A program made the translations under genes and the position numbers. Below, piece after piece: positions 877 to 16,621 of a DNA stretch of 64,000 nt. How positions within the stretch are numbered: the first letter of the stretch is position 1; each line of letters starts with the position of its first letter. The notes beneath the pieces were generated by a model. That model had not been told where the DNA came from and searched no databases. It worked only from the letters and a program-made list of their open reading frames with translations. The stretch comes from Myxococcota bacterium (lineage in GTDB: Bacteria; Myxococcota_A; UBA9160; JAFDDA01): positions 1,504,001-1,568,000 of the forward strand of contig OZ245817.1 in the NCBI GenBank assembly GCA_965228475.1. Reading direction: 5' to 3'.

Positions 877-1566
877 CTAGCGAAGGCTCGCGAGCCACTG
901 GACGAGCTCGGAGCGGGTGGCGTCGGACATGTCGAGCTTCGGCATGGCGGTGCCGGGTTTCACCGCCGGCGGATCCGCCAGCCAGCGGTCGAGCTCGGCG
1001 ACGGAGAGCCGGGACCCCACGCCGTCGAGGGCGGGGCCGACCACACCGCCGCTTCCGCCCACGGCGTGGCAGGCAATGCAGACGCTGCTGAAGAAGGCCG
1101 GCGTCGGCAGGCCCGCATCCGGCGTGGCGGTTGCGACGACCACGGCTCGGGCGAGGTCCGGCTCCGGCGGGAAGCCGTTCGTGTCGATCTCGCCGATCCA
1201 ACCGAGGAACGCGATCACGTCCTCGATCTCCTGCTCGCTGAAGTCGTACTGGATCATGCGCCGCTGGCCCGGGAACATGGCCTCGGGGTCGCGCAAGAAG
1301 ATCGCGATCCACTCGGCGCCGCGGCGCTCGACCACCCTCGTCAGCTCCGGCGCGTAGTAGGCGCCCTCACCGAGGATCGTGTGGCAGCCCATGCAGTTGT
1401 TCTTGTCCCAGATGTGCTTGCCGCGAACGACCGATTCGGTCATGCGGTCCTGGTTCTGGAGCTTCGGGATCTCGCGGAGCGTATCGATCGTGAGGAAGAT
1501 GAAGATCGCACTGAAGAAGAGGGTTCCTCCGACGAAGAACCCGCGCGCTTGTGATTTCGAGAGCAT
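877..1566 (-). CDS. norC: Nitric oxide reductase cytochrome c subunit with an extra C-terminal cytochrome c domain
   Basis: N-terminal TM, GKHIWDKNNCMGCHTILGEGAYYAPEL (NorC signature), second CIACH...PGTAMP domain. Confidence 0.92.
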   Translation of the reverse strand: MLSKSQARGFFVGGTLFFSAIFIFLTIDTLREIPKLQNQDRMTESVVRGKHIWDKNNCMGCHTILGEGAYYAPELTRVVERRGAEWIAIFLRDPEAMFPGQRRMIQYDFSEQEIEDVIAFLGWIGEIDTNGFPPEPDLARAVVVATATPDAGLPTPAFFSSVCIACHAVGGSGGVVGPALDGVGSRLSVAELDRWLADPPAVKPGTAMPKLDMSDATRSELVQWLASLR

Positions 1567-1748
1567 CGCCGTCCCCTGCACCGACAGGTGCCGAAATCAG
1601 CACATGCAAGTGCGGGACCAAGCTCCCCTGGATCTCAGCGCTTCTCCCGTGTGCGCCCGTCCGGCCCGCGGGGTGGAATGTCCCAGCCGCCGAGGCGCTG
1701 AGGCGGCCCGGCGCAGGAGAGCGACCTCCTGCGCCAGCGGCCTTCGCG

Positions 1749-2012
1749 CTACACGAGCTTGCGTACGTGCTCGTAGCCCTCGCGGATCTCGTCGAGCAGG
1801 AGACGGGCGGCGTCGCCCACGTCCTGCGCCGAGGCGCGGGTCTCGGAAGCGAGCAGGTTGAGCTTCGCCTCGAGGTGCTCCCAGCTCTTCTCCGCCGCTT
1901 CGTAGCGTTCCTGGGCTTCGAGCTTCGCCAGGTGGATCTGGACGCGCAGCTCGTCGCGAAGACTGCGCAGCTCGTCGGCTTCGGCCTGGATCCGGTCTTT
2001 CAGGTCGGACAT
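1749..2012 (-). CDS. Small helical/coiled-coil hypothetical protein (87 aa)
   Basis: MSDLKDRIQAEADELRSLRDELRVQIHLAKLEA...; start overlaps the USP stop, GGAGA RBS. Confidence 0.75.
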   Translation of the reverse strand: MSDLKDRIQAEADELRSLRDELRVQIHLAKLEAQERYEAAEKSWEHLEAKLNLLASETRASAQDVGDAARLLLDEIREGYEHVRKLV

Positions 2013-2935
2013 CAGTTCTCCCCTTCGTCTCGGTTTCTGCGGACCGTCAGCACGGGGCAGGGCGCGCGGCCCACCGCCCGCTCCGCGGTGCTGCCGAGCA
2101 GCAGGTGCGGCAGGAACGATCGTCCGTGCGTGCCCATGGCGATCAGGTCGACGTCGCGGCGGCGCGCCTCGCTCTCGATGCCCTCGGCGGCGTCGCCCTC
2201 CATGCAGGCGGTCGTGATCCGGTAGCCCTTCTCGCCGAGGGGCTTCGCGGCCTTCTCGAGCTCCGCGCGCGCCTGCTCGAGGGCGCCCCGCGTCATGTCG
2301 GAGAGGACGAAGCCGCCGGCCAGGTGGATGTACTCCGGCGGGATGTGGAACGCGTGGAAGAGCACGAACTCGGTCTCCTCCCCGGCGCCGAACAGATCGA
2401 GGGCCGTCTGCAGCGCGAGGGCGGCGTCTTCGGAGAAGTCCGTCGGCACGAGCACGCGCTTCAGCTGCTCGGGGGGCAGCATGTCCGTCTGGACCGTCAG
2501 CACCGGTACCGCGGAATGCTGGACCAGGCGCTTGGCCGTGCTGCCGAGCACGAGGTGGCGCAGGCCGCGCAGGCCGCGGGTCCCGCTGATGATCAGGTCG
2601 GCCTCGTGCTCCTCGGCGGCGGCGAGGATCGTCGGGGAGGCGGGGCCGACCCGCAGGTCGCTCACCGCGTCGATGCCCTCGGCCCGGAGCCGCTGGACCT
2701 CTTCGTCGAGCCGGTCGCTCACCGCCTTGCGGTACTGGACGTGGAGCTCGGCCGGGTAGGCCGCGAACTCGGGGAACCCCGGCGCGCCCTGGGGCGGTGC
2801 CAGCGCATGCTGCAGCACGAGGCGCGCGCCCCGCTGCTTGCCGAGGAGCCTCCCCCAGGCCAGCGCCACGTTCGCGCACTCGGAGAAGTCCGTGGCGACG
2901 AGGACGGTCGAAAGGGGAGCCGGGTTCGGGGGCAT
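2012..2935 (-). CDS. Universal stress protein, tandem USP domains
   Basis: Two repeats of VLV(A/P)TDFS...DLI.(S/M)GT.G...LGST. Confidence 0.95.
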   Translation of the reverse strand: MPPNPAPLSTVLVATDFSECANVALAWGRLLGKQRGARLVLQHALAPPQGAPGFPEFAAYPAELHVQYRKAVSDRLDEEVQRLRAEGIDAVSDLRVGPASPTILAAAEEHEADLIISGTRGLRGLRHLVLGSTAKRLVQHSAVPVLTVQTDMLPPEQLKRVLVPTDFSEDAALALQTALDLFGAGEETEFVLFHAFHIPPEYIHLAGGFVLSDMTRGALEQARAELEKAAKPLGEKGYRITTACMEGDAAEGIESEARRRDVDLIAMGTHGRSFLPHLLLGSTAERAVGRAPCPVLTVRRNRDEGEN

Positions 2936-2990
2936 TGCGTTTCCTCCTGTTCCGTAGATCTAAGACGCTTCGCGGCGCATGCAAGCGATT

Positions 2991-3005
2991 TCAAGTCGCA
3001 TGCCA
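2991..3005 (-). promoter_or_regulatory. Sigma-54 promoter for USP operon
   Basis: TGGCAT-GCGAC-TTGA on minus strand; -12 is GA rather than GC. Confidence 0.55.
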
Positions 3006-3099
3006 GCAGGGCAGAGCGCTGCGGTGCGCCTTTCGGGCCCGCCTGCGCCAGAACGCCCCACTGCCCGAGCCGTCCCCGGCGGCAGAGGCGTCCGGAGTG

Positions 3100-3115
3100 C
3101 GGCACGATCGATGCA
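3100..3115 (+). promoter_or_regulatory. Sigma-54 promoter for CBS gene
   Basis: CGGCAC-GATCG-ATGCA with correct GG-N10-GC spacing. Confidence 0.6.
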
Positions 3116-3169
3116 ACGCTGCAGGGAACGAGGCGGCGAGCGTCAAGCAGCGCTCGCCGAGGAGGAGCC

Positions 3170-3604
3170 ATGGATCCGCGCGAGGTACCGGTTTCGGAGA
3201 TCATGCAGGCCGACTTCGTCCACATGTCGCCGGACGACGATCTCGACTACGTCTCGGAGCTCGTCCAGCTCGGGCGAGTCCGGCACTTCGCCGTGCTCGA
3301 CGAGGGACGGCTCGTCGGCATCGTCTCGCAGCGCGATCTGTTGAAGGCCTCTCTCACGAAGGCGCTGCCGGTCGCCGAGGAACGGCGCCGGGAGTTCCTG
3401 CGCACGGTGCGCGTCGGCGAGGTGATGGCGACCGACGTCCACACCGTGGCGCCGGACACGCCGCTCTCGGACGTCGCCCGGCTCCTCGATCGCTACAAGA
3501 TCGGCTGCGTGGTCGTCGTCGAGGGCGACAAGGCGGTCGGGATCGCGACGGAGACCGATCTCCTGCGACGCGCCTACATCGGAGATCGCCCCGCCGGCAG
3601 CTAG
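3170..3604 (+). CDS. CBS-domain pair protein
   Basis: GGAGG RBS; VSEIM...LVGIVSQRDL...VGEVM...VGIATETDLL. Confidence 0.9.
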   Translation: MDPREVPVSEIMQADFVHMSPDDDLDYVSELVQLGRVRHFAVLDEGRLVGIVSQRDLLKASLTKALPVAEERRREFLRTVRVGEVMATDVHTVAPDTPLSDVARLLDRYKIGCVVVVEGDKAVGIATETDLLRRAYIGDRPAGS

Positions 3605-4980
3605 CCGGCCTTGCTCTCCTCGGCCGAGGCGCGGCGGCGCTCGCCGCGCCGGTAGAGGGTTCGCCGATTGATTCCGAGGATCTCGGCCGCGCGGACCTTG
3701 TTGCCGCCCGTTTCCGAGAGCACGAGGTCGATGTAGCGGTCGCCGAGGTCGTGGAGCGTGACGCGATGCTTCGCGAAGGCCCGCAGGTCGCCGTCGGTCC
3801 CGCTGGCGGCGGCGCCCTCGTCGCCGAGCGGCAGGTCCTCCTCCTCGATCCGCTCGCCGTCGCAGAGCGCGAGCGCGCGCTCGATCACGTTCTCGAGCTC
3901 CCGAGCGTTCCCCTCCCAGTTGCAGCGCATGAGCCGCGCGAGGGCGCCCGGCGAGAGCGTGCGCGTCTCGCCGTCGGCGTGCTTCTCGAGCAGGGCCTCC
4001 GCCAGGGGGCGGACGTCGTCCGGCCGCTCGCGCAGGGGCGGGATGTGGATCGGGATCACGTTCAGCCGGTAGAAGAGGTCGCGCCGGAAGCGGCCCTCGT
4101 CCATCTCGGCCTCGAGCTCCTTGTTGGTGGCGGTCACGATGCGGACGTCCACCTTGACGGTGTGGTTCCCGCCGACCGGCCGGATCTCCCGATCCTGGAG
4201 GACGCGGAGGAGCTTGCTCTGCAGGCCGAGGCCCATGTCCCCGATTTCGTCGAGGAAGAGCGTTCCGCCGTTCGCTTCCTCGAAGAGCCCTCGCTTCGAA
4301 GCGTGCGCGCCCGTGAAGGCACCGCGCACGTGGCCGAAGAGTTCACTCTCGAGCAGGCCTTCGGGGATGGCCGTGCAGTTGATCGGGATGAACGGGCGGT
4401 CCTTGCGCGAGCTGGAGAAGTGGAGCGTCCTCGCGACGACCTCCTTGCCCGTGCCGCTCTCGCCCGTGATGAGGACGCTGCTCCGGTTGTCCGCGACCTT
4501 GCGGATCAGCGCGAAGATCTCGCGCATCGCGTCGCTCTCGCCGATCAGGTCGCCGAAGGCGCTCGTCCGGTCGACGGCGCGGCGCAGGCGCCGGTTCTCC
4601 TCTTCGAGGGCGCGGGTCTCGAAGGCGCGCTCCAGGGCGAGCAGCAGCTCTTCGCGCTTGAAGGGCTTGGTGATGTAGTCGAAGGCGCCGGCGCGCATGG
4701 ACTCGACGGCCGAGTCGATCGAGCCGAAGGCGGTCATCAGGATCACCGGGGTTCCCGGCCGCACGGCGCGGATCTCCGCCACCAGCTCGAGCCCGCTCCG
4801 GCCGGGCATGCGGATGTCCGAGACCACCGCGTCGGCATCGAGGTCGCGCAGCCGTTCGAGGGCCTTGTCGGCTCCCGACTCGCCGTGGGCCTCGAAGCCC
4901 TGATCGCAAAGCACCGAGACGACCATTTCGCGCATCGCGTCGTCGTCGTCGACCACCAAGACGTGTCGCCGTTCACTCAT
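3601..4980 (-). CDS. Sigma-54-dependent response regulator (NtrC/AtoC family: REC-AAA+-HTH)
   Basis: VLVVDDD, SDIRMPG, GESGTGKE, GAFTGA, FLDEIG, C-terminal Fis-type HTH. Confidence 0.95.
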   Translation of the reverse strand: MSERRHVLVVDDDDAMREMVVSVLCDQGFEAHGESGADKALERLRDLDADAVVSDIRMPGRSGLELVAEIRAVRPGTPVILMTAFGSIDSAVESMRAGAFDYITKPFKREELLLALERAFETRALEEENRRLRRAVDRTSAFGDLIGESDAMREIFALIRKVADNRSSVLITGESGTGKEVVARTLHFSSSRKDRPFIPINCTAIPEGLLESELFGHVRGAFTGAHASKRGLFEEANGGTLFLDEIGDMGLGLQSKLLRVLQDREIRPVGGNHTVKVDVRIVTATNKELEAEMDEGRFRRDLFYRLNVIPIHIPPLRERPDDVRPLAEALLEKHADGETRTLSPGALARLMRCNWEGNARELENVIERALALCDGERIEEEDLPLGDEGAAASGTDGDLRAFAKHRVTLHDLGDRYIDLVLSETGGNKVRAAEILGINRRTLYRRGERRRASAEESKAG

Positions 4981-4996
4981 AGCTACCCTTCGCCAA

Positions 4997-5012
4997 AGCA
5001 CGGCCCGTGCCA
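4997..5012 (-). promoter_or_regulatory. Sigma-54 promoter for the response regulator
   Basis: TGGCAC-GGGCC-GTGCT on minus strand. Confidence 0.6.
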
Positions 5013-5144
5013 GCGGGAGGGGCGCTGAGGCGGCTCTCCGGGCTCCCCGCCGGTCGAGTCGAGCCAAGAAGGCACACTCTCGGACTGAGTGTAGCAATAA
5101 GTCTCATGTCGTCCCGCTGCGCCGGGCGGTCTTCGCCCCGCGCT

Positions 5145-5160
5145 TGGCACGCGCTCTGCA
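5145..5160 (+). promoter_or_regulatory. Sigma-54 promoter for second CBS gene
   Basis: TGGCAC-GCGCT-CTGCA. Confidence 0.65.
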
Positions 5161-5172
5161 CCCAACTCGGGC

Positions 5173-5565
5173 ATGCACGCGGTCCAAGATCTGATGCGGA
5201 GGCAGTTCATCCGGATCGAGCCGGATGCCGACCCGCGGGCCGCCCTCGAGCTCATGGAGATGGCGCGGGTCCGGTCGCTGCCGGTGCTGGCTCGCGGAGC
5301 GCCCCCCGGCTGGATCCTGCACCGGGATCTGGCCCAGGCAGCCCTCGACGGCAGCCTCGATCAGGAGTCGGGCATCGGCCGCTGGGTGCGGCCCGGGCTG
5401 CCGGTCCCCGTCCACATGCCGCTCTCGGACGCCGTCGAGAAGATGCTCGAGGCGGATGCGCCGTGTCTCATGGCGGCGGACTTCGAGGCCGACCCGCCGC
5501 ACATCGTCGGCCTGGTCACCGAGTCGGATCTGCTGCGCGCCGCGTACCTGAGCGCCAACGCCTAG
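5173..5565 (+). CDS. CBS-domain pair protein
   Basis: VQDLM...RSLPVL...IVGLVTESDLLRAA. Confidence 0.8.
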   Translation: MHAVQDLMRRQFIRIEPDADPRAALELMEMARVRSLPVLARGAPPGWILHRDLAQAALDGSLDQESGIGRWVRPGLPVPVHMPLSDAVEKMLEADAPCLMAADFEADPPHIVGLVTESDLLRAAYLSANA

Positions 5566-5573
5566 CGGTTGGC

Positions 5574-6875
5574 CTAGGCCGTCTCCGGAGCGTCGGCCTT
5601 CGCCTGCGCCAGCGGGAGCCGGATCTCGAAGCACGTTCCCTTGCCGACTTCGCTCGTCACGTCGAGGACGCCCCCGTGGTCGCCCACGATGCCCTGGGCG
5701 ACGACCAGGCCGAGGCCGTTGCCCTGGCCCGCGGGCTTGGTGGTGAAGAACGGCTCGAAGATGTGCGCGAGCTGGTCCGCATCCATGCCCGCGCCGGTGT
5801 CCGCGAAGGTCAGCTCGAGTGTTTCCTCCGCGCCGGGACGGAGGGAGACGGTCAGGGTGCCGCCGCCTTCGGCCATGGCGTCGGCGGCGTTGAGGGCGAG
5901 GTTCAAGAAGAGCTGTTGGAGCTTCTCCGGGTCCCCGAGGACCGAGGGCGTCGGCTGGTAGTCCGTCTTCACCTCGACGGCGAGCCGCCGGAGCTTCACG
6001 CCGAGGAAGGAGAGGGTCGTCTCGAGCAGGGGCTCGAGCGCGACGGGCTCGCGGATCGACTCGCGCGGCCGCGCCATGTTCAAGAGCGCCTGGATGATGC
6101 GCGAGATCCGGTCGATCTGGTCGCGGATGGTGTTCAGCCGCCAGCGGGCCTTCTCGTCGGAGACGGCGGGTTCGAGCGCTTCGGCGTGGCCCTGGATCAC
6201 GCTCATGGGCGTCCCGATCTCGTGGGCGAGGCCGGCGGCCAGCGTGGCGACGGAGGCGAGGTCCTCGGCGGCGCGCGCGCGCCGGCTCGTCTGGCGCAGC
6301 TCGTGGGTGCGGTCGTCGAGGGTGCGGGTGAGGGAGCGGCTCGCTTCGGCGAGCTCGCGGTTCAGGTGCTCGAGCTGCTCCTCGTGGCGCGCGATGTAGG
6401 TCTCCATCGCGAGCTGCGCATCGAGCATCAGGCGCTTCATCAGTGCGGAGAGGGCGAGCTCGCAGCGGTCGACGGCCTGGCCGAAGGCGTCGCGCACGAT
6501 CGGCATGAGCAGCGTGAAGTAGAGGGTGTAGGCGCCGAGGTACCAGCGCGGTTCGAGCCCGATCCGCGCGTGGACCTCCCCGATCCGCAGCCGCTCGGCG
6601 ACGTAGGTCTCGTCGATGTCCGAGCCGAAGAGCGAGATCAGGTACGCGCGCTGGCTCTTCAGGAGGCGGGCCTTCACGGCCGGGTCCGAGAGCAGCCCGC
6701 GGGTCTCCTCGAAGGAGAGCAGGTGCCGGTAGAAGGCCGAGACGAGCGTGTCCGCCCGCTTCTCGACGTCGGGGCGCAGGCTCGCCAGGAGGCGGAGCTC
6801 GCCCGCGTCGAGGTTCAGGAAGGCCAGCCGGGTCTGGAGATCCGTTTGGAAGTCGCGGGTTTCCACTGCCCCCAT
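5574..6875 (-). CDS. Globin-coupled sensor histidine kinase
   Basis: Sensor globin (FYRHL; RLRIGEVHARIGL proximal His) + H-box LAHEIGTP, NAADAM, DTGAGM, FEPFFTTK, GNGLGL; start may be 6875 or 6935. Confidence 0.9.
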   Translation of the reverse strand: MGAVETRDFQTDLQTRLAFLNLDAGELRLLASLRPDVEKRADTLVSAFYRHLLSFEETRGLLSDPAVKARLLKSQRAYLISLFGSDIDETYVAERLRIGEVHARIGLEPRWYLGAYTLYFTLLMPIVRDAFGQAVDRCELALSALMKRLMLDAQLAMETYIARHEEQLEHLNRELAEASRSLTRTLDDRTHELRQTSRRARAAEDLASVATLAAGLAHEIGTPMSVIQGHAEALEPAVSDEKARWRLNTIRDQIDRISRIIQALLNMARPRESIREPVALEPLLETTLSFLGVKLRRLAVEVKTDYQPTPSVLGDPEKLQQLFLNLALNAADAMAEGGGTLTVSLRPGAEETLELTFADTGAGMDADQLAHIFEPFFTTKPAGQGNGLGLVVAQGIVGDHGGVLDVTSEVGKGTCFEIRLPLAQAKADAPETA

Positions 6876-7011
6876 TGTGGGGAACTCCCGGTGGGGGTCA
6901 ATCCGAGGAAACCGCACCGGCCGTTCTGTGCCCATCCGTCACGCCTTCCCGGGCCGGGTGGGGCGGGCTGTCGCTCAGCCGACACGAAAGGCGAACTCGA
7001 CGTCGGATTTC

Positions 7012-7026
7012 TGGCACGGCGCTTGC
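7012..7026 (+). promoter_or_regulatory. Consensus sigma-54 promoter for the di-iron operon
   Basis: TGGCAC-GGCGC-TTGC, exact consensus. Confidence 0.85.
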
Positions 7027-7071
7027 GATGCATCCCTCCCAGGTCTCGCAGCACCGCAGACGGAGGACGAC

Positions 7072-7962
7072 ATGTCGGATTTTCTCTCGGGTTACTCGAT
7101 CCAGTACTGGTTGGAGTCCTGCCCCCAGGGCTACCTCGAAGACACGGAGTTCGGTCACAAGGCCGACGCCAAGGAGCCCGCGCTCGTTCTCGAGAACGAC
7201 CTCATGCGGCAGCAGGCCATCCAGGTCACGACCCAGATGGTCGTCGGCGAGCGCTGTGCCCTGGCCGCCTCCTCGGGCCTGATCAACGCCGCGCCCGACG
7301 AAGCCGCGAAGCGCTTCCTCGCCACCCAGACCCTCGACGAAGCGCGACACGTGGAAGTGTTCACCCAGCGCCTGTTCGACCTCGGCGTCAAGAAGCAGGA
7401 TCTCGAGTCGACGATCCGCGAGTACGCGAACCCGAACCTCGTGAAGTTCGCCGAGCGGCTGCTCGAGAAGGTCGACAACAAGGACTTCATCCCCGGCGTG
7501 GTCGGCCAGAACATCATCCTCGAAGGGATGGCCTTCAGCGTCTTCGAGATGACGCACGCGGCCAACAAGGAGCTCAACCCGAAGTTCGCTCAAACCCTCG
7601 CCGGTACGATCGCCGACGAGCGGCGTCACGTCGGGTTCGGTGAGAACTACATCGGGGCCCTGATCAAGGCGCAGCCGGAGAAGAAGGCCGAGATCGAGAA
7701 GATGCAGAAGGAGATGTCCTACTACATGCTCGCCACCTTCGCGGACCAGTTCCGCGGCGACGAGAACCGCAAGGAGCTCGACGAGATGCGCCGCCAGGCG
7801 CGCGAGGCCGGCGGCACGGGCGAAGGCACGTGGCAGGGGCAGAACCTCTCGGATCTCGAACCGGACCAGATGGAGGGGCTGCTCTCGGACACGGTCCTGC
7901 ATGAGTTCAAGACGCGGCTCGGGCGGATCGGGATCGACTACCAGACGCCGTCGCAGCCCTAG
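7072..7962 (+). CDS. Ferritin-like di-iron carboxylate protein A
   Basis: GGAGG RBS; ligand pattern VGE...DEARH...ILE...DERRH. Confidence 0.85.
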   Translation: MSDFLSGYSIQYWLESCPQGYLEDTEFGHKADAKEPALVLENDLMRQQAIQVTTQMVVGERCALAASSGLINAAPDEAAKRFLATQTLDEARHVEVFTQRLFDLGVKKQDLESTIREYANPNLVKFAERLLEKVDNKDFIPGVVGQNIILEGMAFSVFEMTHAANKELNPKFAQTLAGTIADERRHVGFGENYIGALIKAQPEKKAEIEKMQKEMSYYMLATFADQFRGDENRKELDEMRRQAREAGGTGEGTWQGQNLSDLEPDQMEGLLSDTVLHEFKTRLGRIGIDYQTPSQP

Positions 7963-7973
7963 AGGAGACCCCG

Positions 7974-8756
7974 ATGGCAGAGTCGGCCGAGGTCCATGGC
8001 CTCACCCCCGAAGAGTTCGAGGAGCGGGTTCACTCCTTCCAGTTCTGGTTCGATTCGGTCCAGGGCTATCTCTCGGGGAGCGAGTACGGCCATCAGGCCC
8101 ATTCGCCGCCCGCTTCCGAGGACATGGACGCCTCGGAGAAGGACCGGCTCATCACGGTGCTCTGCAACTACTGCGTCGGAGAGACCGCTGCGCTCGATGG
8201 AGCCAGCGGCCTCGTCGCGGGGGCGCCCAACCGGCTGACGAAGATCTTCCTCTCGACCCAGGTCGTGGACGAAGGCCGGCACCTCGAGGTGCTGCGCAAC
8301 CGGCTCGTCGAGCTCGGCGTGGCCGACCCGGAGGAGGAGATCGAGCGCCGTGCGACGCCGCGCCTGCGGGACTTCCGTTCCCGGCTCCAGGCGCTCGTCG
8401 CCGAGCGGGATTGGGAGGCGGCGATCTTCGCCCAGAACGTGATCCTCGAAGCGATGGAGTTCGCCACCTTCCACACCCACGCGCAGCACGCGGACCCGGT
8501 CACGCGGGAAGTGCTGCAGGGGATCATCAAGGACGAGCGCCGGCACATCGGGTTCGGCGAGCGGGAGCTCGGACGGCGCCTGAAGCACCACCCGACCCTG
8601 CGCCATCGCCTGGCGCGCGTGCGCAGCCAGCTCGACCCGCTCGTGCTTGCCTCCTTCGAAGACGCCATGGGGGAGCTGAAGGTCCCGGTCGACGAGCGCG
8701 AGCAGCTCGGCCGGAGCTACCTCGAGGCGGTGGAGCGCCTGGGGGTGGGGCTGTGA
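7974..8756 (+). CDS. Ferritin-like di-iron carboxylate protein B (paralog of A)
   Basis: AGGAG RBS; VGE...DEGRH...ILE...DERRH. Confidence 0.85.
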   Translation: MAESAEVHGLTPEEFEERVHSFQFWFDSVQGYLSGSEYGHQAHSPPASEDMDASEKDRLITVLCNYCVGETAALDGASGLVAGAPNRLTKIFLSTQVVDEGRHLEVLRNRLVELGVADPEEEIERRATPRLRDFRSRLQALVAERDWEAAIFAQNVILEAMEFATFHTHAQHADPVTREVLQGIIKDERRHIGFGERELGRRLKHHPTLRHRLARVRSQLDPLVLASFEDAMGELKVPVDEREQLGRSYLEAVERLGVGL

Positions 8757-9046
8757 GCGGGCAGATCGTCGAGATGAACCCGGATGCGCCGCGCAAGCGC
8801 TACGAACTCCTGGACGACACGGGCTTCGACGAGGTCCCGAAGAAGTACCGGAAGTTCTACCGCCGCTGGGAGGGTGCGGGCGATTCGCTCGCCCCGAACG
8901 AAGTCCTCTGCCCCGTGTGCAAGGTCGTGATCCGCTCGAACCGCGAGCTCCGCATCGGGGACCGCGTCTACTGCATGGCGTGCATGGCCCGCATGCGGGT
9001 CGTGCGGGACGAGGGCGGCCAGCTCGTGGCCGAGGTCGAGTACTAG
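8753..9046 (+). CDS. Small CxxC...CxxC (zinc-ribbon/rubredoxin-like) protein, 97 aa
   Basis: GTG start overlaps upstream stop (GTGA); LCPVCKVVI...GDRVYCMACMARMRVV. Confidence 0.75.
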   Translation: MSGQIVEMNPDAPRKRYELLDDTGFDEVPKKYRKFYRRWEGAGDSLAPNEVLCPVCKVVIRSNRELRIGDRVYCMACMARMRVVRDEGGQLVAEVEY

Positions 9047-9064: not shown

Positions 9065-9259
9065 CTAGCGGCTCGGCGGAGGCTCCGCGGCCTCGGCCCG
9101 TTCTTCGCGCTCCGGGCAGGCGTCGTCGTCCTCGAGATGGCGGTGGGCCGGCCCTTCCCAATCGTCGAACTCCCCGCGCCGGACGGAACGCACGACGATC
9201 CACAGCAGCACGCCCGCGAGCAGGAGCGAGGCCGGGATGGTGATGGCGAGGAAGCTCAT
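9065..9259 (-). CDS. ccoS: cbb3-type oxidase assembly protein CcoS/FixS
   Basis: TM + SVRRGEFDDWEGPAHR, last gene of cco operon. Confidence 0.85.
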   Translation of the reverse strand: MSFLAITIPASLLLAGVLLWIVVRSVRRGEFDDWEGPAHRHLEDDDACPEREERAEAAEPPPSR

Positions 9260-9269
9260 CCCGCTGCCC

Positions 9270-11483
9270 TCATGAGCCCGGCTCCCAGCGGAGCAGGCGG
9301 ATGCTGTTCGCCGTCACCGCGACCGAAGAGAGGCTCATCGCGACCGCCGCCCAGAGCGGCGTGAGCACGCCCGTCGCGGCCAGAGGGATCGCGACGATGT
9401 TGTAGCCGATGGCCATGGCCAGGTTCTGGCGGATGCGCCGAAGCGTCACCCGCGAGAGCTCGACGGCGTCGGGCAGGGCCTCGAGCCGCGGCGCCCGGAT
9501 CACCACGTCGGCGGCGTGGATCGCCACGTCGGCACCGCGGGCCATGGCGATGCCGACGTCCGCGGCCGCGAGGGCCGCCGCGTCGTTGATGCCGTCCCCG
9601 GCCATGAGCACGCATTCTTCCGCCGCCTGGTGGCGCGCGACGGATTCGACCTTCTCCTCGGGAGACACCTCGGCGGCGAAGGTCTCGATCCCGGCGCGGG
9701 CGGCGGCCCGCGCGACGGCGCTCGCGTGGTCCCCGCTCAGCAGGGAGGTCTCGCTGCCGAGGGCACCGAGCCGTTCGACCGCGCGGGCCGCGTCCTCGCG
9801 CGGTGCGTCCGAGAAGGCGAGCAGGCCCGTGACCGCAGCGTCTTCGGCGACGAAGGCGAGGGAAGCGCCGCGCTCCCGGGCCTCGCGCGCGGCGGCTTCG
9901 AGACGTGCGTCCGGAACGAGGCCGTGCTCGGCGAGCCACTTCTCGGAGCCGACGAGCACGCGGTCGTCGCCTTCGCCGGCGGCGACGCCGAGCCCCGCGC
10001 GGGCGGTGCGGTGCGTCCGCTCGCGCACGTCGAGGCCCGCCTCCGCGGCGGCGCGGGCGATGGCGGTCGCCACCGGGTGGAGACTCGTCCCTTCGGCGGA
10101 GGCGGCGGCCCGCAGGACGTCCTTCGCATCGCGGCCCTCGGCCGCATCGATCCGTTCGAGCGTGAGCCGCCCTTCGCTGAGCGTTCCGGTCTTGTCGAGG
10201 ATCACGCGGTCGACGCGCGCACAGCGTTCGATGGCTTCGCCCGACTTGAACAGGATGCCCTTGGCGGCCGCGCGGCCGATCGCCGCGGTGATGGCCGCAG
10301 GGGTCGCGAGCCCGAGAGCGCACGGGCAGGCGACGATCAGGACGGCAGCGGTGTAGAGGGCGACGTCGAGGGGCGCCGCGCCGCGCAGGGCCGTCATCAC
10401 CGCGGTCAGGGCGGCGATGGCGAGCACCGCCGGCGCGAAGACGGTGGCGACGCGATCGACGAGCCGTTGGACCCGGGGCTTTTCGGTCTGGGCCCGCTCG
10501 AGCAGGGCGACCATGCGTGCGAGGTTGCCTTCGCGCGGCGCGGCGGTCACCCGCAGCTCGATCTCCGCGAGGAGGTTGCGCGAGCCGCCGACCACGGCGT
10601 CACCGGGGCCCCGGGTCACGGGGAGCGACTCCCCCGAGAGCAGGGCTTCGTCGAACTCGCTCTCGCCGTAGAGGAGGATCGCGTCGGCGGGAACGCCCTC
10701 GCCGGGGGCGACGACGATGACGTCGCCGGCCACGAGCTCGTCCCGGGGCACCGTTTCGAGACCGGCACCGCTCCTTCGCCGTGCCGTCTCCGGGGCGAGC
10801 GCGGCCAGCGATTCCACCGCGGCCGAGGCACGCGCACGGGCCCGCCGTTCGAGCGTTCGACCGAGCAGGACGAGGAAGACGATCATCGCGGCCGAGTCGA
10901 TGTAGACGTGGTGGCTTTCGCCGAGCGTCGCCGCGATCGAGGCGGCGAAGGAGACGCTGATCCCGAGCACGACCGGCACGTCGATCGGGATCGTCCCCGA
11001 GCGGAGCCCGCGGAAGGCCCCCTTCCAGAAGGGCGCGGCGCACCAGGTGACCGCGGGGACCGAGAGGGCGACCGCGATCCAGCGCAGGCCCCGTCGCGTC
11101 GTCTCGTCGATGCCCTCGAAGGCGCCGATGTAGAGCGCGACGGCGAGCCACATCACGTTGCCGGCCAGGAATGCCGCCACGAGCACGCGAACCAGCGCGT
11201 CGCGGGCCTGCTGCTCCGCCGGGCGATCGAGGGCGGCCGGATCGTAGGGCGTGGCTTCGTAGCCGAGCTCCTCGATGCAGCCGACCAGGGCTTCGGTCGG
11301 CGCCTCCTTCGCATCGTGGCTCACCCGCGCGCGGTGGTTCGTGTAGTTGACGACGGCCTCGCGGACGCCGGGCAGCTCGCGCAGCGCCCGCTCCACCCGC
11401 CCGACGCAGCCCGCGCAGCGGAGCCCGTCGAGGAAGAGACCCGTCTCGGACGTTCCGGGGGCCCCGGCCGTCGATTCACTCAC
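9270..11483 (-). CDS. ccoI: Copper-type P1B ATPase CcoI/FixI
   Basis: CAGC HMA domain, CPCAL, DKTGT, HP, GDGIND. Confidence 0.92.
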   Translation of the reverse strand: MSESTAGAPGTSETGLFLDGLRCAGCVGRVERALRELPGVREAVVNYTNHRARVSHDAKEAPTEALVGCIEELGYEATPYDPAALDRPAEQQARDALVRVLVAAFLAGNVMWLAVALYIGAFEGIDETTRRGLRWIAVALSVPAVTWCAAPFWKGAFRGLRSGTIPIDVPVVLGISVSFAASIAATLGESHHVYIDSAAMIVFLVLLGRTLERRARARASAAVESLAALAPETARRRSGAGLETVPRDELVAGDVIVVAPGEGVPADAILLYGESEFDEALLSGESLPVTRGPGDAVVGGSRNLLAEIELRVTAAPREGNLARMVALLERAQTEKPRVQRLVDRVATVFAPAVLAIAALTAVMTALRGAAPLDVALYTAAVLIVACPCALGLATPAAITAAIGRAAAKGILFKSGEAIERCARVDRVILDKTGTLSEGRLTLERIDAAEGRDAKDVLRAAASAEGTSLHPVATAIARAAAEAGLDVRERTHRTARAGLGVAAGEGDDRVLVGSEKWLAEHGLVPDARLEAAAREARERGASLAFVAEDAAVTGLLAFSDAPREDAARAVERLGALGSETSLLSGDHASAVARAAARAGIETFAAEVSPEEKVESVARHQAAEECVLMAGDGINDAAALAAADVGIAMARGADVAIHAADVVIRAPRLEALPDAVELSRVTLRRIRQNLAMAIGYNIVAIPLAATGVLTPLWAAVAMSLSSVAVTANSIRLLRWEPGS

Positions 11484-11664
11484 CGCCGGCGCCCGGCCGT
11501 TCGAGCTCGCGGGCGTACTCGAGCCCTGCCCGGTAGGCGTCGTCGACGACGGTCGGGTCCGGGTTGCGGATCGCCGTCGCCAGGAAGAGGAGCGAGACGC
11601 TGATCATTCCGCCGAGCAGGCTCGCGATGATCCAGGGCCAGGGTTCACGTCGATCATCCGCCAT
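11476..11664 (-). CDS. ccoH: Short FixH/CcoH-like protein (62 aa)
   Basis: REPWPW-TM-VVDDAYRAGLEY FixH N-terminal motif, between ccoG and ccoI. Confidence 0.7.
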   Translation of the reverse strand: MADDRREPWPWIIASLLGGMISVSLLFLATAIRNPDPTVVDDAYRAGLEYARELERPGAGGE

Positions 11665-12997
11665 GGAAGGCTCCTTGCTGTGCAGACCCCTGGGCCGAAA
11701 CCGGGGCGACGAAGGTGGACTCGCGGACGAGCTCGCGGATCTCGCCGTCGCTGCGCCGGAGTCGGAAGGAGATGGGCATCGCACCGGCGCCGAGCTCCGG
11801 CGCGCCCGGGTCGACCACCACGAACACGCGCGTCTCGACGTGCCGGATGGGGGCGACCGAGACCGGGTTGCTCCCGGCGACCAGCTCGAAGCCGTCCGGT
11901 GCGTCGAGCAGGATCTCGAAGGCGTGGGCCTCGCGGTCGCGGTTGGTGATGAACACGGTGTAGGCGTTCGTGAGCCGGCCGTCCCCGGTGGAGCCGAACA
12001 TCTGACTCCGGTTGTGCTCGACGTCGAAGTCGACGGGAACCCGCTGGCCGAGCAGGACGAGGAACGAACCCGCGATGACCGCGAGCATCGTCGTGTAGAC
12101 CAGCACCCGGGAGCGGAAGATCCGGGCTTCGCGCAGGCCCTCGAGGCTCACCCAGGCCCGGTAGTCGATCAGGCCGCGTTTCCGCCCGAGGCGGGCCATC
12201 ACGCCGTCGCAGGCGTCGATGCACTGGGTGCAGGTGATGCACTCGAGCTGCATGCCGTCGCGGATGTCGATCTCCGACGGGCAGACGGCCACGCACAGCC
12301 CGCAGTCCACGCAGTCTCCGGCGGTCGAACCGCGCTTGCCGCGGGGCTCGCCGCGCGCGGCGTCGTAGCCGATCACGAGCGTGTCGCGGTCGAAGAGCAC
12401 GCTCTGGAGCCGGGCGTAGGGGCAGAGGAACTTGCAGAAGGTCTGGCGCACGAAGGCGAAGTCCAGATAGGCCAGGGCCGAGAGGACGAGGACGAAGCCG
12501 CCGGCGACGGCCGGGGGTTCTCCCCGGAAGGTCGAAGCGAGCAGTGCGTCGATCGGGTGGAAGTATCCGACCACGTGCACGCCCACGACCAGCGCGATCG
12601 CGAGGAACACGAGATGGGTGAGCGCCTTTCGCCAGGGGGCGATGCGGCGCGGCGGGCCCCCGGCGCTCCAGCCCTGGATGCGGCGCGCGATCCCAGCGAA
12701 CACGTCCGTGAAGACGGTCTGCGGGCAGGCCCAGCCGCACCACACGCGGCCGGCCAGCGCCGTGAAGAGGAAGAGCGCGAGCGCGACGCCGGCGATCAGG
12801 AGCCAGAGGAAGAGGAGCTCCTGGGGGAAGATCACGAGGCCGAACACGTGGAACTTGCGCCCCGGGATGTCGAGCCACACGAGCGGGTCGCCCTGGATGC
12901 GGATCCACGGGATGCCGAGGAGCACGGCGATCAGGACGACGTTGGCCCAGGTTCGAAGCGTCCGGAAACGACCCCGGACGGGGCGCGCGCTCAGCAC
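11654..12997 (-). CDS. ccoG: Cytochrome c oxidase accessory protein CcoG
   Basis: GRVWCGWACPQTVF, CKFLCPY, CVDCGLCVAVCP, CITCTQCIDAC. Confidence 0.95.
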   Translation of the reverse strand: MLSARPVRGRFRTLRTWANVVLIAVLLGIPWIRIQGDPLVWLDIPGRKFHVFGLVIFPQELLFLWLLIAGVALALFLFTALAGRVWCGWACPQTVFTDVFAGIARRIQGWSAGGPPRRIAPWRKALTHLVFLAIALVVGVHVVGYFHPIDALLASTFRGEPPAVAGGFVLVLSALAYLDFAFVRQTFCKFLCPYARLQSVLFDRDTLVIGYDAARGEPRGKRGSTAGDCVDCGLCVAVCPSEIDIRDGMQLECITCTQCIDACDGVMARLGRKRGLIDYRAWVSLEGLREARIFRSRVLVYTTMLAVIAGSFLVLLGQRVPVDFDVEHNRSQMFGSTGDGRLTNAYTVFITNRDREAHAFEILLDAPDGFELVAGSNPVSVAPIRHVETRVFVVVDPGAPELGAGAMPISFRLRRSDGEIRELVRESTFVAPVSAQGSAQQGAFHGG

Positions 12998-13003
12998 GGC
13001 GCC

Positions 13004-13567
13004 CTAGCTCCCGGGCGGAGCGGCGTCGGGCGCACCCACCCCCGGTTCGTCGGACTTCGGCAGCGTCTCCAGGTACGCCAGGGCCTTCCAGATCTTCTCG
13101 GACCCGAGCTGCACGCCCCAGGGCGGCATCCCGAGCGGGCGCCCTTCGGCCACGCTCACGTACAGCGCCTCGTCGTCGTCCCCGTACTTCCAGTAGGGAT
13201 CGACCAGGCTCGGCCCGACCAGGCCGCGGCCGTCCGCGAGGTGGCAGGCGGCGCAGGTCGTGGCGAACACCTCGCGGCCCTCCTCGATGGCCGCGGCGTC
13301 GCCGCGGAACGGGTTCTCCGAGGGCAGCTCCGGGCGGTTCGCCGCGATCACCGCCTGGGCGGTCTCGACCTCGGCCCGCCACTGACCCTCGGCGGACCAG
13401 CCGGAGAACAGGTAGTAGGGCGTGTAGATGCAGGCGAAGAGGATCGACGCGACGAAGGTCCAGTTGAACCACGGCGGGATCGGGTTGTCTTCCTCTTCGA
13501 TGCCGTCGCGCATCGGCGCGCCTTCGGTCGGGAGCTCGGCGATCTTCTCGTGCAGTTCGTCGTTCAT
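13004..13567 (-). CDS. ccoP: cbb3 oxidase subunit III (mono-haem)
   Basis: DGIEEEDNPIPPWF N-terminal motif; single CAACH; MPPWG. Confidence 0.88.
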   Translation of the reverse strand: MNDELHEKIAELPTEGAPMRDGIEEEDNPIPPWFNWTFVASILFACIYTPYYLFSGWSAEGQWRAEVETAQAVIAANRPELPSENPFRGDAAAIEEGREVFATTCAACHLADGRGLVGPSLVDPYWKYGDDDEALYVSVAEGRPLGMPPWGVQLGSEKIWKALAYLETLPKSDEPGVGAPDAAPPGS

Positions 13568-13716
13568 CCCTCGTCCTCTTCGAGCATGCGCCGCGCCGGC
13601 GCTTCCAGGCGTTCCCGGTTGGCGGGGCGGTACAGGTAGGCGGTGATCCCGGCCAGCACGAGAGCCAGCAGCGCAAGGCGGCCGAACTTGTAGATGGCGA
13701 CCCAGTCTTCCGTCAC
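13564..13716 (-). CDS. ccoQ: cbb3 oxidase subunit CcoQ
   Basis: 50 aa TM + YRPANRERLEAPA; overlaps ccoO stop and ccoP start. Confidence 0.75.
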   Translation of the reverse strand: MTEDWVAIYKFGRLALLALVLAGITAYLYRPANRERLEAPARRMLEEDEG

Positions 13717-14423
13717 GGTGCACTCTCCATTCGCGAGGCCTCGAAGGATTCCCGCGTCACCGCGGTGCCGAGGGCCTGGAGGTAGGCGATCAGGGCCAGC
13801 GCCTCGCTGCGCATGTTCTCCTCGGAGAGCGTGAGCCCGTCCTTCTGCAGGGAGGCGACGACGGTGGCGGCCTCGGCCCAGGCGTCGTCGGCCGCGTTCG
13901 CGATCTCTTCGTCGGAGTAGGGGTGACCGAGACCCCGCAGGACGGAGAGCTTCTTCGAAGAGAGCGACGTATCGAGCTCGTTCGTCAGCAGGAAGCCGAA
14001 GTCCGGCATGTTCGAGCGCGGCTCGATGCTGCGCGGCTCCTTCAGGTGGATCCAGTGCCAGGAGTCCGGGTACTTCTTCCCGATGCGCGCCAGGTCCGGC
14101 CCCGTGCGCCGCGAGCCGAACAGGAATGGGCGGTCGTAGACGTGCTCGCCGGCCATCGTGAAGGGGCCGTAGCGATCGGTTTCGCTGCGCAGCGGACGGA
14201 TCTGCTGGCTGTGGCAGACGTTGCAGCCCTCCCGGATGTAGATGTCCCGGCCCTCGAGCTCGAGCGCGCTGTAGGGCCGCACGCCGGGGATCGCGACGAT
14301 CGTTCCCTGGAGGAAGTAGGGCGGGATCAGGAGGGCGAGGCCGCCCACCGCGATCGCGAGCAGCGTCAGCACGGTGAACGTCACGCCCTTGGCTTCGAGC
14401 TTCCGGTGTCCTTCCCACGCCAT
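13713..14423 (-). CDS. ccoO: cbb3 oxidase subunit II
   Basis: GRDIYIREGCNVCHSQQIRP, GSRRTGPDLAR. Confidence 0.96.
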   Translation of the reverse strand: MAWEGHRKLEAKGVTFTVLTLLAIAVGGLALLIPPYFLQGTIVAIPGVRPYSALELEGRDIYIREGCNVCHSQQIRPLRSETDRYGPFTMAGEHVYDRPFLFGSRRTGPDLARIGKKYPDSWHWIHLKEPRSIEPRSNMPDFGFLLTNELDTSLSSKKLSVLRGLGHPYSDEEIANAADDAWAEAATVVASLQKDGLTLSEENMRSEALALIAYLQALGTAVTRESFEASRMESAP

Positions 14424-14424
14424 C

Positions 14425-15873
14425 TCAGCGTCCCCCCGCCACGGCGCCGATCGGTTCGCTCGACGGTTCTGGGATGCGGCTCGTTCCCTGCTGGATGGTG
14501 CGGATCACGTTGTAGAACATGATCAGCGCGCCCACGAGGAACACCGCGCCGCCGCCGGCGCGCAGCACGTCGTAGATGCGGATGGCCGACACCGTCTCGA
14601 TGAACGAGTAGGTCAGGCTCCCGTCGTCCTCGTACGCGCGCCACATCAGGCCCTGGGTCACGCCGGACACCCACATCGGCGTCACGTAGAGGAGCACGCC
14701 GATCGTCGCCGTCCAGAAGTGCACCTCCGCCAGCCGCACGCTGTAGAGCGTGGTGTGCCAGAGGCGCGGGATCAGGTAGTAGAGCGTCGCGAAGCAGGTG
14801 AGGCCCACCCAGCCGAGGGCGCCCGAGTGCACGTGGCCGATCGTCCAGTTGGTGAAGTGCGAGAGCGAGTTCACCGTCTTGAGCGACATCATCGGCCCCT
14901 CGAAGGTGCTCATGCCGTAGAAGGTCAGGCCGACGACGAACATCTTGAGGAGCGGGTCGGTGCGCAGCTTGTCCCAGGCGCCGCGCAGGGTGAGCAGGCC
15001 GTTCAGCATCCCGCCCCAGGAGGGCAGGATCAGCATGATCGAGAAGGCGGTCCCGAACGTCTGCGCCCAGTCCGGCAGCGGCGAGTAGATCAGGTGGTGG
15101 GGGCCGGCCCAGATGTAGATGAAGATCAGGGACCAGAAGTGCAGGATCGAGAGCCGGTGCGAGTAGATCGGCCGGCCCGCCTGCTTGGGCAGGAAGTAGT
15201 ACATGAGACCGAGGATGGGCGTCGTCAGCAGGAACCCGACGGCGTTGTGCCCGTACCACCACTGGATGTTCGCGTCGTGGATGCCGGCGTAGATCGAGTA
15301 GGACTTCCACATCGAGACCGGCATCTCGAGGCTGTTGAAGATGTGGAGCATCGCGATGGTCAGGACGGTGGCCAGCCAGAACCAGATCGCCGCGTACATG
15401 CTCTTCTCGCGCCGCTTCGCGAGGGTCCCGAAGAAGTTCACCGCGTAGATCACCCAGACGACGGCGATGGCGATGTCGAGGGGCCACTCGAGCTCCGCGT
15501 ACTCCTTCGAGGTGGTCTTGCCGAGGGTCAGGCTCACGGCCGCCGCGACGATGATCGCGTTCCAACCCCAGAGATTGATGCGCGAGAGCGTGTCGGAGAA
15601 CATCCGGACGCGGCACAGGCGCTGGAGGCCGTAGTAGGACCCGGCGAAGACGACGCCGAGCGTGAAGCCGAAGATCACGGCGTTGGTGTGGATGGGCCGG
15701 AGCCGCCCGAAGTGCAGGATTCCCCAGTTGGTCTCGGGCCAGGCCAGCTGGATGGCCGCGATCAGGCCGACCAACATGCCGACGATGCCCCAGACGAGTG
15801 CCGAGATGGCAAACCCCCGCACCACGGCCATGTCGTACTCGACCGGTCCCTCTTGCGTGACAGCCTCGCTCAA
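14425..15873 (-). CDS. ccoN: cbb3 oxidase subunit I
   Basis: [33 protein letters not shown] start with GGAGG RBS. Confidence 0.96.
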
Positions 15874-15926
15874 GATGATCCCCTCCACGGCGCGCGGGCA
15901 GGCCCGCACGGCGTGCCCTGCCGGAT

Positions 15927-15942
15927 TGCAAAGGCAGTACCA
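15927..15942 (-). promoter_or_regulatory. Sigma-54 promoter for cco operon
   Basis: TGGTAC-TGCCT-TTGCA on minus strand. Confidence 0.75.
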
Positions 15943-16065
15943 AGGGCGGGGCGAAGGGATGGCTCGCTCCGCACTGCGGTGTGCCTTTCTGGCGCAATCG
16001 AGGGGTTTCGAGGGACGAAACGGCACGAACCCGAGGTCGTCGGCCGGAGCTTCGGGCCGTCCCGC

Positions 16066-16605: not shown

Positions 16606-16621
16606 CGGCACGCTCCTTGCT
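16606..16621 (+). promoter_or_regulatory. Sigma-54 promoter for OM barrel gene
   Basis: CGGCAC-GCTCC-TTGCT. Confidence 0.7.

Follow-up and report, generated by a model that had tools for sequence, protein, structure and literature searches.

A candidate di-iron oxygenase cassette of two VlmB-like paralogs and a four-cysteine protein behind a sigma-54 promoter in a Myxococcota genome

In a 64 kb stretch of a Myxococcota genome (contig OZ245817.1; the whole stretch is called the window here) three tightly packed genes, A, B and C, encode two related di-iron proteins and a small protein with four cysteines. The question raised by this locus is what such a trio does, and what the gas-sensing kinase, the norCB genes and the cco genes around it in the window have to do with its function. 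Our favoured reading, to which we give a probability of about 0.6, is that A-B-C is a self-contained O2-activating di-iron carboxylate oxidase or oxygenase cassette of the branch that holds VlmB, the aldehyde-deformylating oxygenases (ADO) and R2lox, and that in this genome it is controlled by sigma-54 and a haem-based sensor. The superfamily is a known one, to which the cassette would add a variant. This reading is drawn from sequence comparison and predicted folds, and it starts from four features of the window (nt, nucleotides; aa, amino acids; ORF, open reading frame):

7012..7026, + strand: sigma-54 (-24/-12) promoter TGGCACGGCGCTTGC, from a motif match and conservation in 7 aligned loci
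7072..7962, + strand: gene A, VlmB-like ferritin-fold di-iron protein of 296 aa, from the ORF, ligands and fold model
7974..8756, + strand: gene B, paralog of A, 260 aa, from the ORF, ligands and tree
8753..9046, + strand: gene C, four-Cys protein of 97 aa with a GTG start, from the ORF, Cys pattern and fold model

The promoter lies 45 nt 5' of the A start codon. Its exact pattern, TGGCAC-N5-TTGC, has this single match within the window, where 0.05 are expected and where 5 of 100 shuffles give at least one, and in the whole 5.0 Mb genome it has 27 exact matches compared with 7 for a reversed control pattern. The genome also encodes rpoN. Scans for other signals gave no sigma-70-like site 5' of A on the + strand and no intrinsic terminator after C. 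Genes A and B are spaced by 11 nt, and the start of C overlaps the stop of B by 4 nt as GTGA, in which GTG starts C and TGA ends B. This layout supports the prediction that the three genes are one translationally coupled operon behind a conserved sigma-54 promoter.

Proteins A and B

Alignments and the tree show A and B to be old paralogs, both with what reads as a canonical 4-Glu/2-His di-iron site. They are 39% identical over 218 aa (E-value, E, 4e-47). The ligands are E60, D89-E90-A-R-H93, E151 and D182-E183-R-R-H186 in A, and E70, DEGRH (E100/H103), E159 and DERRH (E188/H191) in B, and each of the six is invariant among the 46 A and 38 B sequences compared. This is the E...ExxH...E...ExxH pattern on a four-helix core that marks the ferritin-like superfamily. 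Both proteins also carry a conserved N-terminal motif, S-I/F-Q-x-W...QGYL...GH. In the tree they form separate clades (Shimodaira-Hasegawa approximate likelihood ratio support, SH-aLRT, of 99 each), with longer branches for B, and the forms of A found without B, alone or with C only, are dispersed inside the A clade. This argues that the duplication is old, that A is the more constrained copy and that B was lost or left behind several times. The first-pass annotation of this DNA had already described the exact promoter 5' of three coupled genes, the two paralogs with full ligand sets and an unusual shared N-terminal motif, and a third gene for a 97-aa CPVC...CMAC protein, and all of this stands.

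The AlphaFold model of A is helical (predicted local distance difference test score, pLDDT, 89.2; predicted template modelling score, pTM, 0.87). Its best fold match is VlmB in entries 8wvr and 6d9f (Foldseek E 2.8e-9, template modelling score, TM, 0.80, about 25% identity), followed by R2lox (TM up to 0.70), ADO (target TM up to 0.77) and Chlamydia R2. The best sequence match of A among solved proteins is again 6d9f/8wvr, with a phmmer E of 4.9e-16 over residues 10-270, the N-terminal motif included, and its Atlas neighbours carry the names VlmB or VlmB family at 0.94-0.95. The two entries are of interest for their titles: 8wvr is the 'azoxy synthase VlmB with its substrate', whereas 6d9f, although it holds the same protein of Kitasatospora setae, bears the title 'protein 60 with aldehyde deformylating oxidase activity'. 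Protein B matches ADO chains over its C-terminal half with E down to 5.9e-10, and 6d9f at 2.1e-8. An ADO resemblance had been proposed in the first pass; it is real, although more distant than that to VlmB, the nearest characterised relative.

Curated models place the pair less well. Protein A passes no Pfam or NCBIfam cut-off, and B passes those of PF11266 (ADO) and PF13794 over part of its length only. Against PF11266 (Ald_deCOase, cut-off 28) A scores 20.2 and B 36.9, the latter over residues 133-245 only. Both are far below the cut-off of the ADO equivalog TIGR04059 (18.8 for A and 36.9 for B, cut-off 222.65) and below that of the R2lox model NF006200 (36.0 and 25.9 bits, cut-off 194), in which the match to A has an E of 4.3e-9 over residues 46-233. 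The Rubrerythrin Pfam score of 14.7 is below its cut-off of 22.8, and A and B are both below the cut-off of Phenol_Hydrox. Of the 2011 sequence clusters that match A, not one carries a curated domain or is informatively named; the best 120 of them are all at least 68% identical and are called at most 'ferritin-like domain-containing protein'. In a 50%-identity library 537 representatives match A at E of 0.001 or less and only 43 at 1e-30 or less. Judged by these matches the A family is large but tight.

The genome also encodes about ten more distant ferritin-fold di-iron paralogs (for example L003-L008; 31-37% identity to A), which is an unusually large set for 5 Mb. All six of those scanned match the AurF N-oxygenase model PF11583, five of them above its cut-off, with E down to 3.7e-14.

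Protein C and the inheritance of the trio

Protein C has a basic N-terminal half, a CPVC-17-CMAC pattern in its C-terminal half and a terminal Tyr. All 70 orthologs have four Cys, no more and no fewer, and in each of them 17 residues separate the two CxxC pairs. The last residue is Tyr in 69 and Phe in 1, and the usual ending is V-A-Y. Conservation is as high in the N-terminal half (DTGFDEVPKKYRKFYRKW...) as in the Cys half. None of the 1486 clusters that match C has a domain or an informative name.

The model of C has a pLDDT of 86.8 and its C-terminal half is beta-rich. Two aligners, Foldseek and VIA, give the zinc-ribbon domain of LysW as its top match (Foldseek E 0.027, target TM 0.67; VIA Z 4.4, root-mean-square deviation 2.0 over 48 residues, 25-28% identity, the second-ranked row having Z 2.7), and residues 48-97 of C superpose on residues 1-48 of LysW. 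The nearest named Atlas clusters are also those of LysW, at 0.86, a lead only. The match ranks first by fold but is modest. Sequence models compared with 43 members of the C family gave:

ZNF512 and GAGA fingers: 41/43 members, best E 5e-4, insignificant
Rubredoxin (PF00301): 6/43 members, weak, best E 0.024, insignificant
LysW (PF21344): 2/43 members, best E 0.056, insignificant

A sequence profile of C compared with solved structures gave insignificant LIM, RING and GAGA zinc-finger matches only (best E 0.02). The small protein had been proposed as a rubredoxin-like donor in the first pass; C is below the rubredoxin threshold and its modelled fold is closest to a LysW-type zinc ribbon. No rubredoxin chain is among the 16 rows with Z of at least 2 in a wide fold search, although C may have a rubredoxin-like fold all the same. 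According to the model, the C-terminal half of C appears to have a LysW-like zinc-ribbon fold with four Cys compatible with Zn or Fe.

LysW has a flexible acidic C-terminal tail that ends in Glu and carries the substrate, and it works with an ATP-grasp ligase. Protein C, in contrast, stops at its conserved Tyr directly after the last strand and has an extra conserved N-terminal half of 48 residues, and no ATP-grasp ligase gene was found among the trio neighbours scanned. Since the acidic carrier tail is missing we describe C as a four-Cys protein of zinc-ribbon type whose fold is LysW-like. For its role we prefer a structural or adaptor Zn ribbon, for which the chances seem about even; an Fe(Cys)4 electron relay is the less probable of the two, at roughly one chance in three.

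Candidate fused forms of C were also looked at. There are 7 matches to longer proteins, 4 of which were inspected. Two of these are read-throughs of B and C joined by out-of-frame text, and the other two extend past C into unrelated-looking sequence. None is a clean fusion, thus fusions give no evidence for contact. In a three-chain complex prediction of A, B and C the control outscored the query with C as partner, which speaks neither for nor against binding.

The conservation of the trio was followed by scanning one genome per species, in which 158 stretches encode A relatives, and the best 80 loci were kept. These come from Myxococcota, Binatia, Acidimicrobiia and a few genomes under other labels, nearly all of them metagenome-assembled. 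Architectures were called by tblastn and ORF calling, and all candidate ORFs within about 8 kb on either side were clustered as neighbours. The architectures found were:

A-B-C intact: 65/80 loci
A-B, with the contig ending 550-590 nt downstream: 2/80 loci
A-C: 5/80 loci
A alone: 8/80 loci

Gene C is present in 70 of the 80 loci, and in 50 of the 65 A-B-C loci the B stop and the C start overlap by 4 or 1 nt. These counts show that the three genes have a shared inheritance in several phyla. Among the ORF clusters of the 80 loci there is no fourth gene conserved with them. The largest other neighbour clusters are CBS-domain proteins (16 loci), histidine kinases (16), sigma-54 activators (13), wax-ester synthase/diacylglycerol acyltransferase (DGAT; 8) and hemerythrin (7), and the immediate same-strand neighbours of the trio are a miscellany. 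The lack of a fourth conserved gene and the mixed neighbours argue that the cassette is self-contained. Within the phylum of the window, C was found in 39 of 401 sampled genomes, a count that takes in the window genome itself. They are concentrated in the order to which the window belongs and in one further family, with nearly none in the other families searched.

A few loci have additions of their own. In the closest relative (L009:9988-11945, + strand; 80% identity in A) C is followed after 16 nt by a wax-ester synthase/DGAT gene, the end of which is overlapped by a hemerythrin gene. The operon of L009 may therefore be one of five genes. An M48 peptidase gene is near A in three of the four loci of one A-only clade (L023, L030 and L039), directly downstream of it in L023 and L039. 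The A-only locus L037 is flanked by a P450-ferredoxin fusion and an FAD oxidoreductase.

Promoter, gas sensor and neighbouring genes

The genes around the trio in the window, the proposed regulators among them, are:

<1-866, - strand: norB, cut by the window start; E 6e-115 to P. aeruginosa NorB (3o0r_B)
877-1581, - strand: two-domain cytochrome c of 234 aa in the NorC position; domain scan
2012..2935, - strand: tandem universal stress protein; Usp 1.9e-57, two stretches
3601..5097, - strand: NtrC-type sigma-54 activator (REC, AAA+ sigma-54 interaction, HTH_8); Sigma54_activat 1.1e-72
5173..5565, + strand: CBS-domain protein between kinase and activator; domain scan
5574..6935, - strand: globin-coupled sensor histidine kinase (Protoglobin-HisKA-HATPase_c), divergent from A; Protoglobin 2.4e-38
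9065..16026, - strand: ccoN, ccoO, ccoP, fixG, fixI and fixS (cbb3 oxidase and its maturation), convergent with C; domain scan

The first-pass annotation had placed the trio between norCB and the cco genes and divergent from a globin-coupled kinase, and both placements hold: the kinase is found at 5574-6935 (-), the ccoN, O, P, fixG, fixI and fixS genes are on one side, and on the other the NorB match, which reaches 447 aa when extended into the flanking genome, is accompanied by a cytochrome c in the NorC position.

A further argument for the promoter comes from an alignment of the intergenic region between kinase and A in seven loci that have the same divergent arrangement (the window, L009, L016, L020, L042, L045 and L046). 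Apart from the ribosome-binding site, the only blocks invariant in it are TGGCA and TTGC, spaced as -24/-12 elements, and this invariance argues that the promoter is functional. The motif lies 49-84 nt 5' of A in all six related loci with a divergent globin kinase. GG at -24 and GC at -12 in exact spacing, retention in relatives and the presence of both rpoN and an activator, as would be looked for in a sigma-54 promoter, are all found here. A looser TGGYAY-N5-TTGC occurs at most 300 nt 5' of A in 13 of the 79 loci with enough upstream sequence.

The sensor and its likely partner recur as well. A globin kinase adjoins the trio in 7 of 80 loci, divergent in six Myxococcota and downstream in one Binatia locus, L014, in which both a protoglobin kinase and an activator follow the trio. 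Activator orthologs 62-78% identical are beside the trio in six Myxococcota loci (L009, L016, L044, L046, L053 and L065), and the CBS gene holds the same position in L009, L016 and L046. In L044, L053 and L065 a PAS kinase, an activator, a universal stress protein, a K+ channel and hemerythrin are found upstream of the trio. At least one neighbour of O2 or redox type is present in 26 of the 80 loci. The synteny check proposed in the first pass therefore came out in two ways: the link of the trio to C is conserved, whereas the link to O2 genes is partial and that to the globin kinase is confined to the seven loci given. The gas-sensor and sigma-54 wiring is, as far as gene order can tell, a recurrent and lineage-specific overlay on the cassette. 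From the same conserved adjacency the NtrC-type activator is the probable cognate regulator of the cassette, and a haem-based gas sensor probably controls the trio in the window genome. The direction of the response is not carried over from any studied sensor, because the kinase has no close solved relative; the best match of its globin domain is HemAT at 1.3e-15. An FNR-type box upstream of A was found in none of the 80 loci as TTGA-N6-TCAA and in one as the looser TTG-N8-CAA.

Several details of this region are worth recording in their own right. The cytochrome c at 877-1581 (-) has two c-type domains, and its best NCBIfam match is SoxX (64.5 bits, cut-off 61); canonical NorC is a mono-haem protein and shorter than this one. 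Residue 21 of the globin kinase ORF, its second Met, may be the actual start, and a sigma-70-like site, TTGACC-16-CACAAT, lies at 6901-6874 (-) inside the longest form of that ORF. One-mismatch sigma-54-like motifs have 6 matches in the window compared with 2.1 expected. One such motif, TGGCACGCGCTCTGC at 5145-5159 (+), is 14 nt before the CBS gene, and another, CGGCACGCTCCTTGC at 16606-16620 (+), is at the start of ORF 16617. The sequence TGGTACTGCCTTTGC at 15928-15942 (-) falls within ccoN as annotated, at its 5' end; should the true start of ccoN lie further downstream, this motif would be a cco promoter. In the second Myxococcota group (L044, L053 and L065, at about 1500-8000) a Coq4-like gene, the PAS histidine kinase and the sigma-54 activator precede the trio on the same strand, with the universal stress protein in L044 and L065, a TrkA-type K+ channel in L044 and L053, and hemerythrin as additional members. 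Coq4-like genes are uncommon in bacteria.

What the cassette may do

How the parts could work together can be outlined as follows. A and B may act as a hetero-oligomer with A, the more constrained of the two, as probably the principal catalytic subunit, and C would be an obligate third subunit that docks on the acidic A and B proteins, as the contrast in predicted isoelectric points suggests (4.9 for A, 5.3 for B and 7.6 for C). This complex would activate O2 at its di-iron sites and oxidise a small metabolite. Because no biosynthetic neighbour is conserved, the substrate would be a common one and not a pathway-specific intermediate. In the window genome and its close Myxococcota relatives the cassette would be transcribed from the sigma-54 promoter once the NtrC-type activator had received a phosphate from the adjacent haem-globin sensor kinase. 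In this way O2 (or NO/CO) status would set the expression of A-B-C together with that of the nor and cbb3 genes.

There are findings that weigh against this proposal, and they bear on each of its parts. The eight A-only and five A-C loci indicate that A can do without B. Protein C is below threshold for the zinc-finger, LysW and rubredoxin sequence models, and no reductase is encoded in the cassette. For the control, the sigma-54 motif (13/79) and the O2/redox neighbours (26/80) are raw counts without a genome-wide control, and counts of this size make the gas-sensing link an addition of certain lineages that does not belong to the cassette as such. Finally, the CBS gene on the opposite strand separates kinase and activator, so that their pairing follows from conserved adjacency only.

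Comparison with known systems helps to define what is unusual here. VlmB, like A, is a ferritin-fold di-iron protein of about 300 aa, it is the best match of A by both sequence and fold, and it has the N-terminal YWL..QG.L...E.GH segment in common with A. According to a review (PMC11705231), the azoxy group of valanimycin arises when VlmB oxidises a hydrazine intermediate, and the partners of VlmB in its gene cluster are VlmO, VlmA and VlmH/R. It is described there as a single gene in a secondary-metabolite cluster, whereas the cassette has two paralogs and a four-Cys protein, and A is only about 25% identical to it. No VlmB-type biosynthetic partner is conserved within about 8 kb of the trio by ORF clustering of the 80 loci, in which VlmO itself was not searched by sequence. 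ADO has the superfamily and the ligand pattern in common with A and B, and the C-terminal half of B matches ADO chains, but ADO is about 230 aa long and has neither the N-terminal motif nor the C-terminal extension of A. R2lox is like A in fold and by the partial NF006200 match, with a score far below the cut-off (36 bits compared with 194); it is a homodimer without a small partner. In PaaA/PaaC/PaaB and in the soluble methane and phenol monooxygenases, paralogous large subunits are joined by a small subunit, and the second paralog has lost its iron ligands. The likeness would lie in the architecture, two paralogous ferritin-fold subunits and a protein of about 100 aa; the difference is that A and B both keep their ligands and that the cassette has no reductase gene. 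Some public automatic annotations do call A homologs '1,2-phenylacetyl-CoA epoxidase catalytic subunit'. The first-pass annotation had recognised no described module here, and we likewise found no curated Pfam or NCBIfam family and, in the literature searched, no publication on the A-B-C trio.

The alternative that survives best, although we consider it unlikely, is the one proposed at first. In it A and B would form a heterodimeric di-iron enzyme that reacts with O2 or NO, is induced when O2 is low and scavenges O2, NO or H2O2, with electrons from C as its rubredoxin-like Fe(Cys)4 donor. The place of the trio between norB and the cbb3 genes, with a haem sensor adjoining, would suit this, as would hemerythrin, NnrS, Crp/Fnr-type and cco genes, which are the O2/redox neighbours of the 26 loci. 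The four invariant Cys and the weak rubredoxin matches of C could belong to such a donor, and there is a precedent in YfaE and Bfd, small Cys-rich partners that re-reduce the R2 protein of ribonucleotide reductase and bacterioferritin, respectively. However, the modelled fold of A is that of substrate-channel enzymes (VlmB, ADO and R2lox) and not of rubrerythrin-type peroxidases, the modelled fold of C is closest to the Zn-binding LysW domain, the FNR-type TTGA-N6-TCAA box is missing 5' of A in all 80 loci, and most loci have no O2/NO neighbour.

Somewhat more doubtful still is a lipid or hydrocarbon enzyme, which would oxidise a fatty aldehyde, an acyl chain or a related lipid in the manner of ADO, R2lox or a desaturase. 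The Ald_deCOase score and ADO matches of the C-terminal half of B agree with this, as does the aldehyde-deformylating activity given in the 6d9f title for the VlmB protein itself. To this can be added the wax-ester synthase/DGAT gene, which 8 of 80 loci have close to the trio and L009 immediately 3' of C, and with clusters for acyl-CoA dehydrogenase, short-chain dehydrogenase/reductase (SDR), lipase and P450 the lipid-type count rises to 19/80. This count has no control, though, in lineages that are rich in lipid genes anyway, no lipid gene is conserved with the trio, the TIGR04059 scores are a small fraction of the cut-off, and no acyl-acyl carrier protein (ACP) reductase partner was found among the neighbours scanned.

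We consider a VlmB-like N-oxygenase, which would oxidise a hydrazine or amine in a natural-product pathway leading to a nitrogen-nitrogen bond or N-oxide, to be very improbable. That VlmB is the closest characterised protein to A, N-terminal motif and Atlas names included, and makes an azoxy group from a hydrazine (PMC11705231) does point this way. The low identity to VlmB points away from it, as does the absence of conserved VlmO, VlmA, VlmH/R or other biosynthetic genes beside the trio in the 80 loci, and the roughly 70% identity that A keeps from phylum to phylum is more in line with a role in common metabolism than with the making of a specialised metabolite. It is just as improbable that C is a LysW-like carrier or precursor under gas-sensor control, the near-invariant terminal Tyr of which is oxidatively modified at the A and B sites, where two fully liganded paralogs could perform two successive oxidations and would yield a protein-borne or released tyrosine-derived cofactor or signal. 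Overall, lipid chemistry has some support from the ADO-like features, the activity deposited with 6d9f and the wax-ester synthase directly after C in L009, and N-oxygenation has some in that no characterised protein is closer than VlmB; conserved context speaks for neither of the two.

The favoured reading, an O2-activating di-iron cassette with its own small subunit, has consequences for the family and for its hosts. Ferritin-fold di-iron enzymes do demanding O2 chemistry, such as alkane formation, N-oxygenation, desaturation and radical generation, and the branch described here is large (2011 clusters of A and 1486 of C), has no curated family and differs in its three-part make-up from every characterised relative. 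It is common in Binatia and in one Myxococcota order, groups that are known almost only from metagenomes. The sequencing runs listed as containing this stretch include no RNA run. Three of them bear single-organism labels and the window genome is a closed 5.0 Mb sequence, therefore a growable organism may exist. To our knowledge the outputs of globin-coupled sensor kinases are rarely known, and the circuit described here offers such a kinase a concrete candidate target operon.

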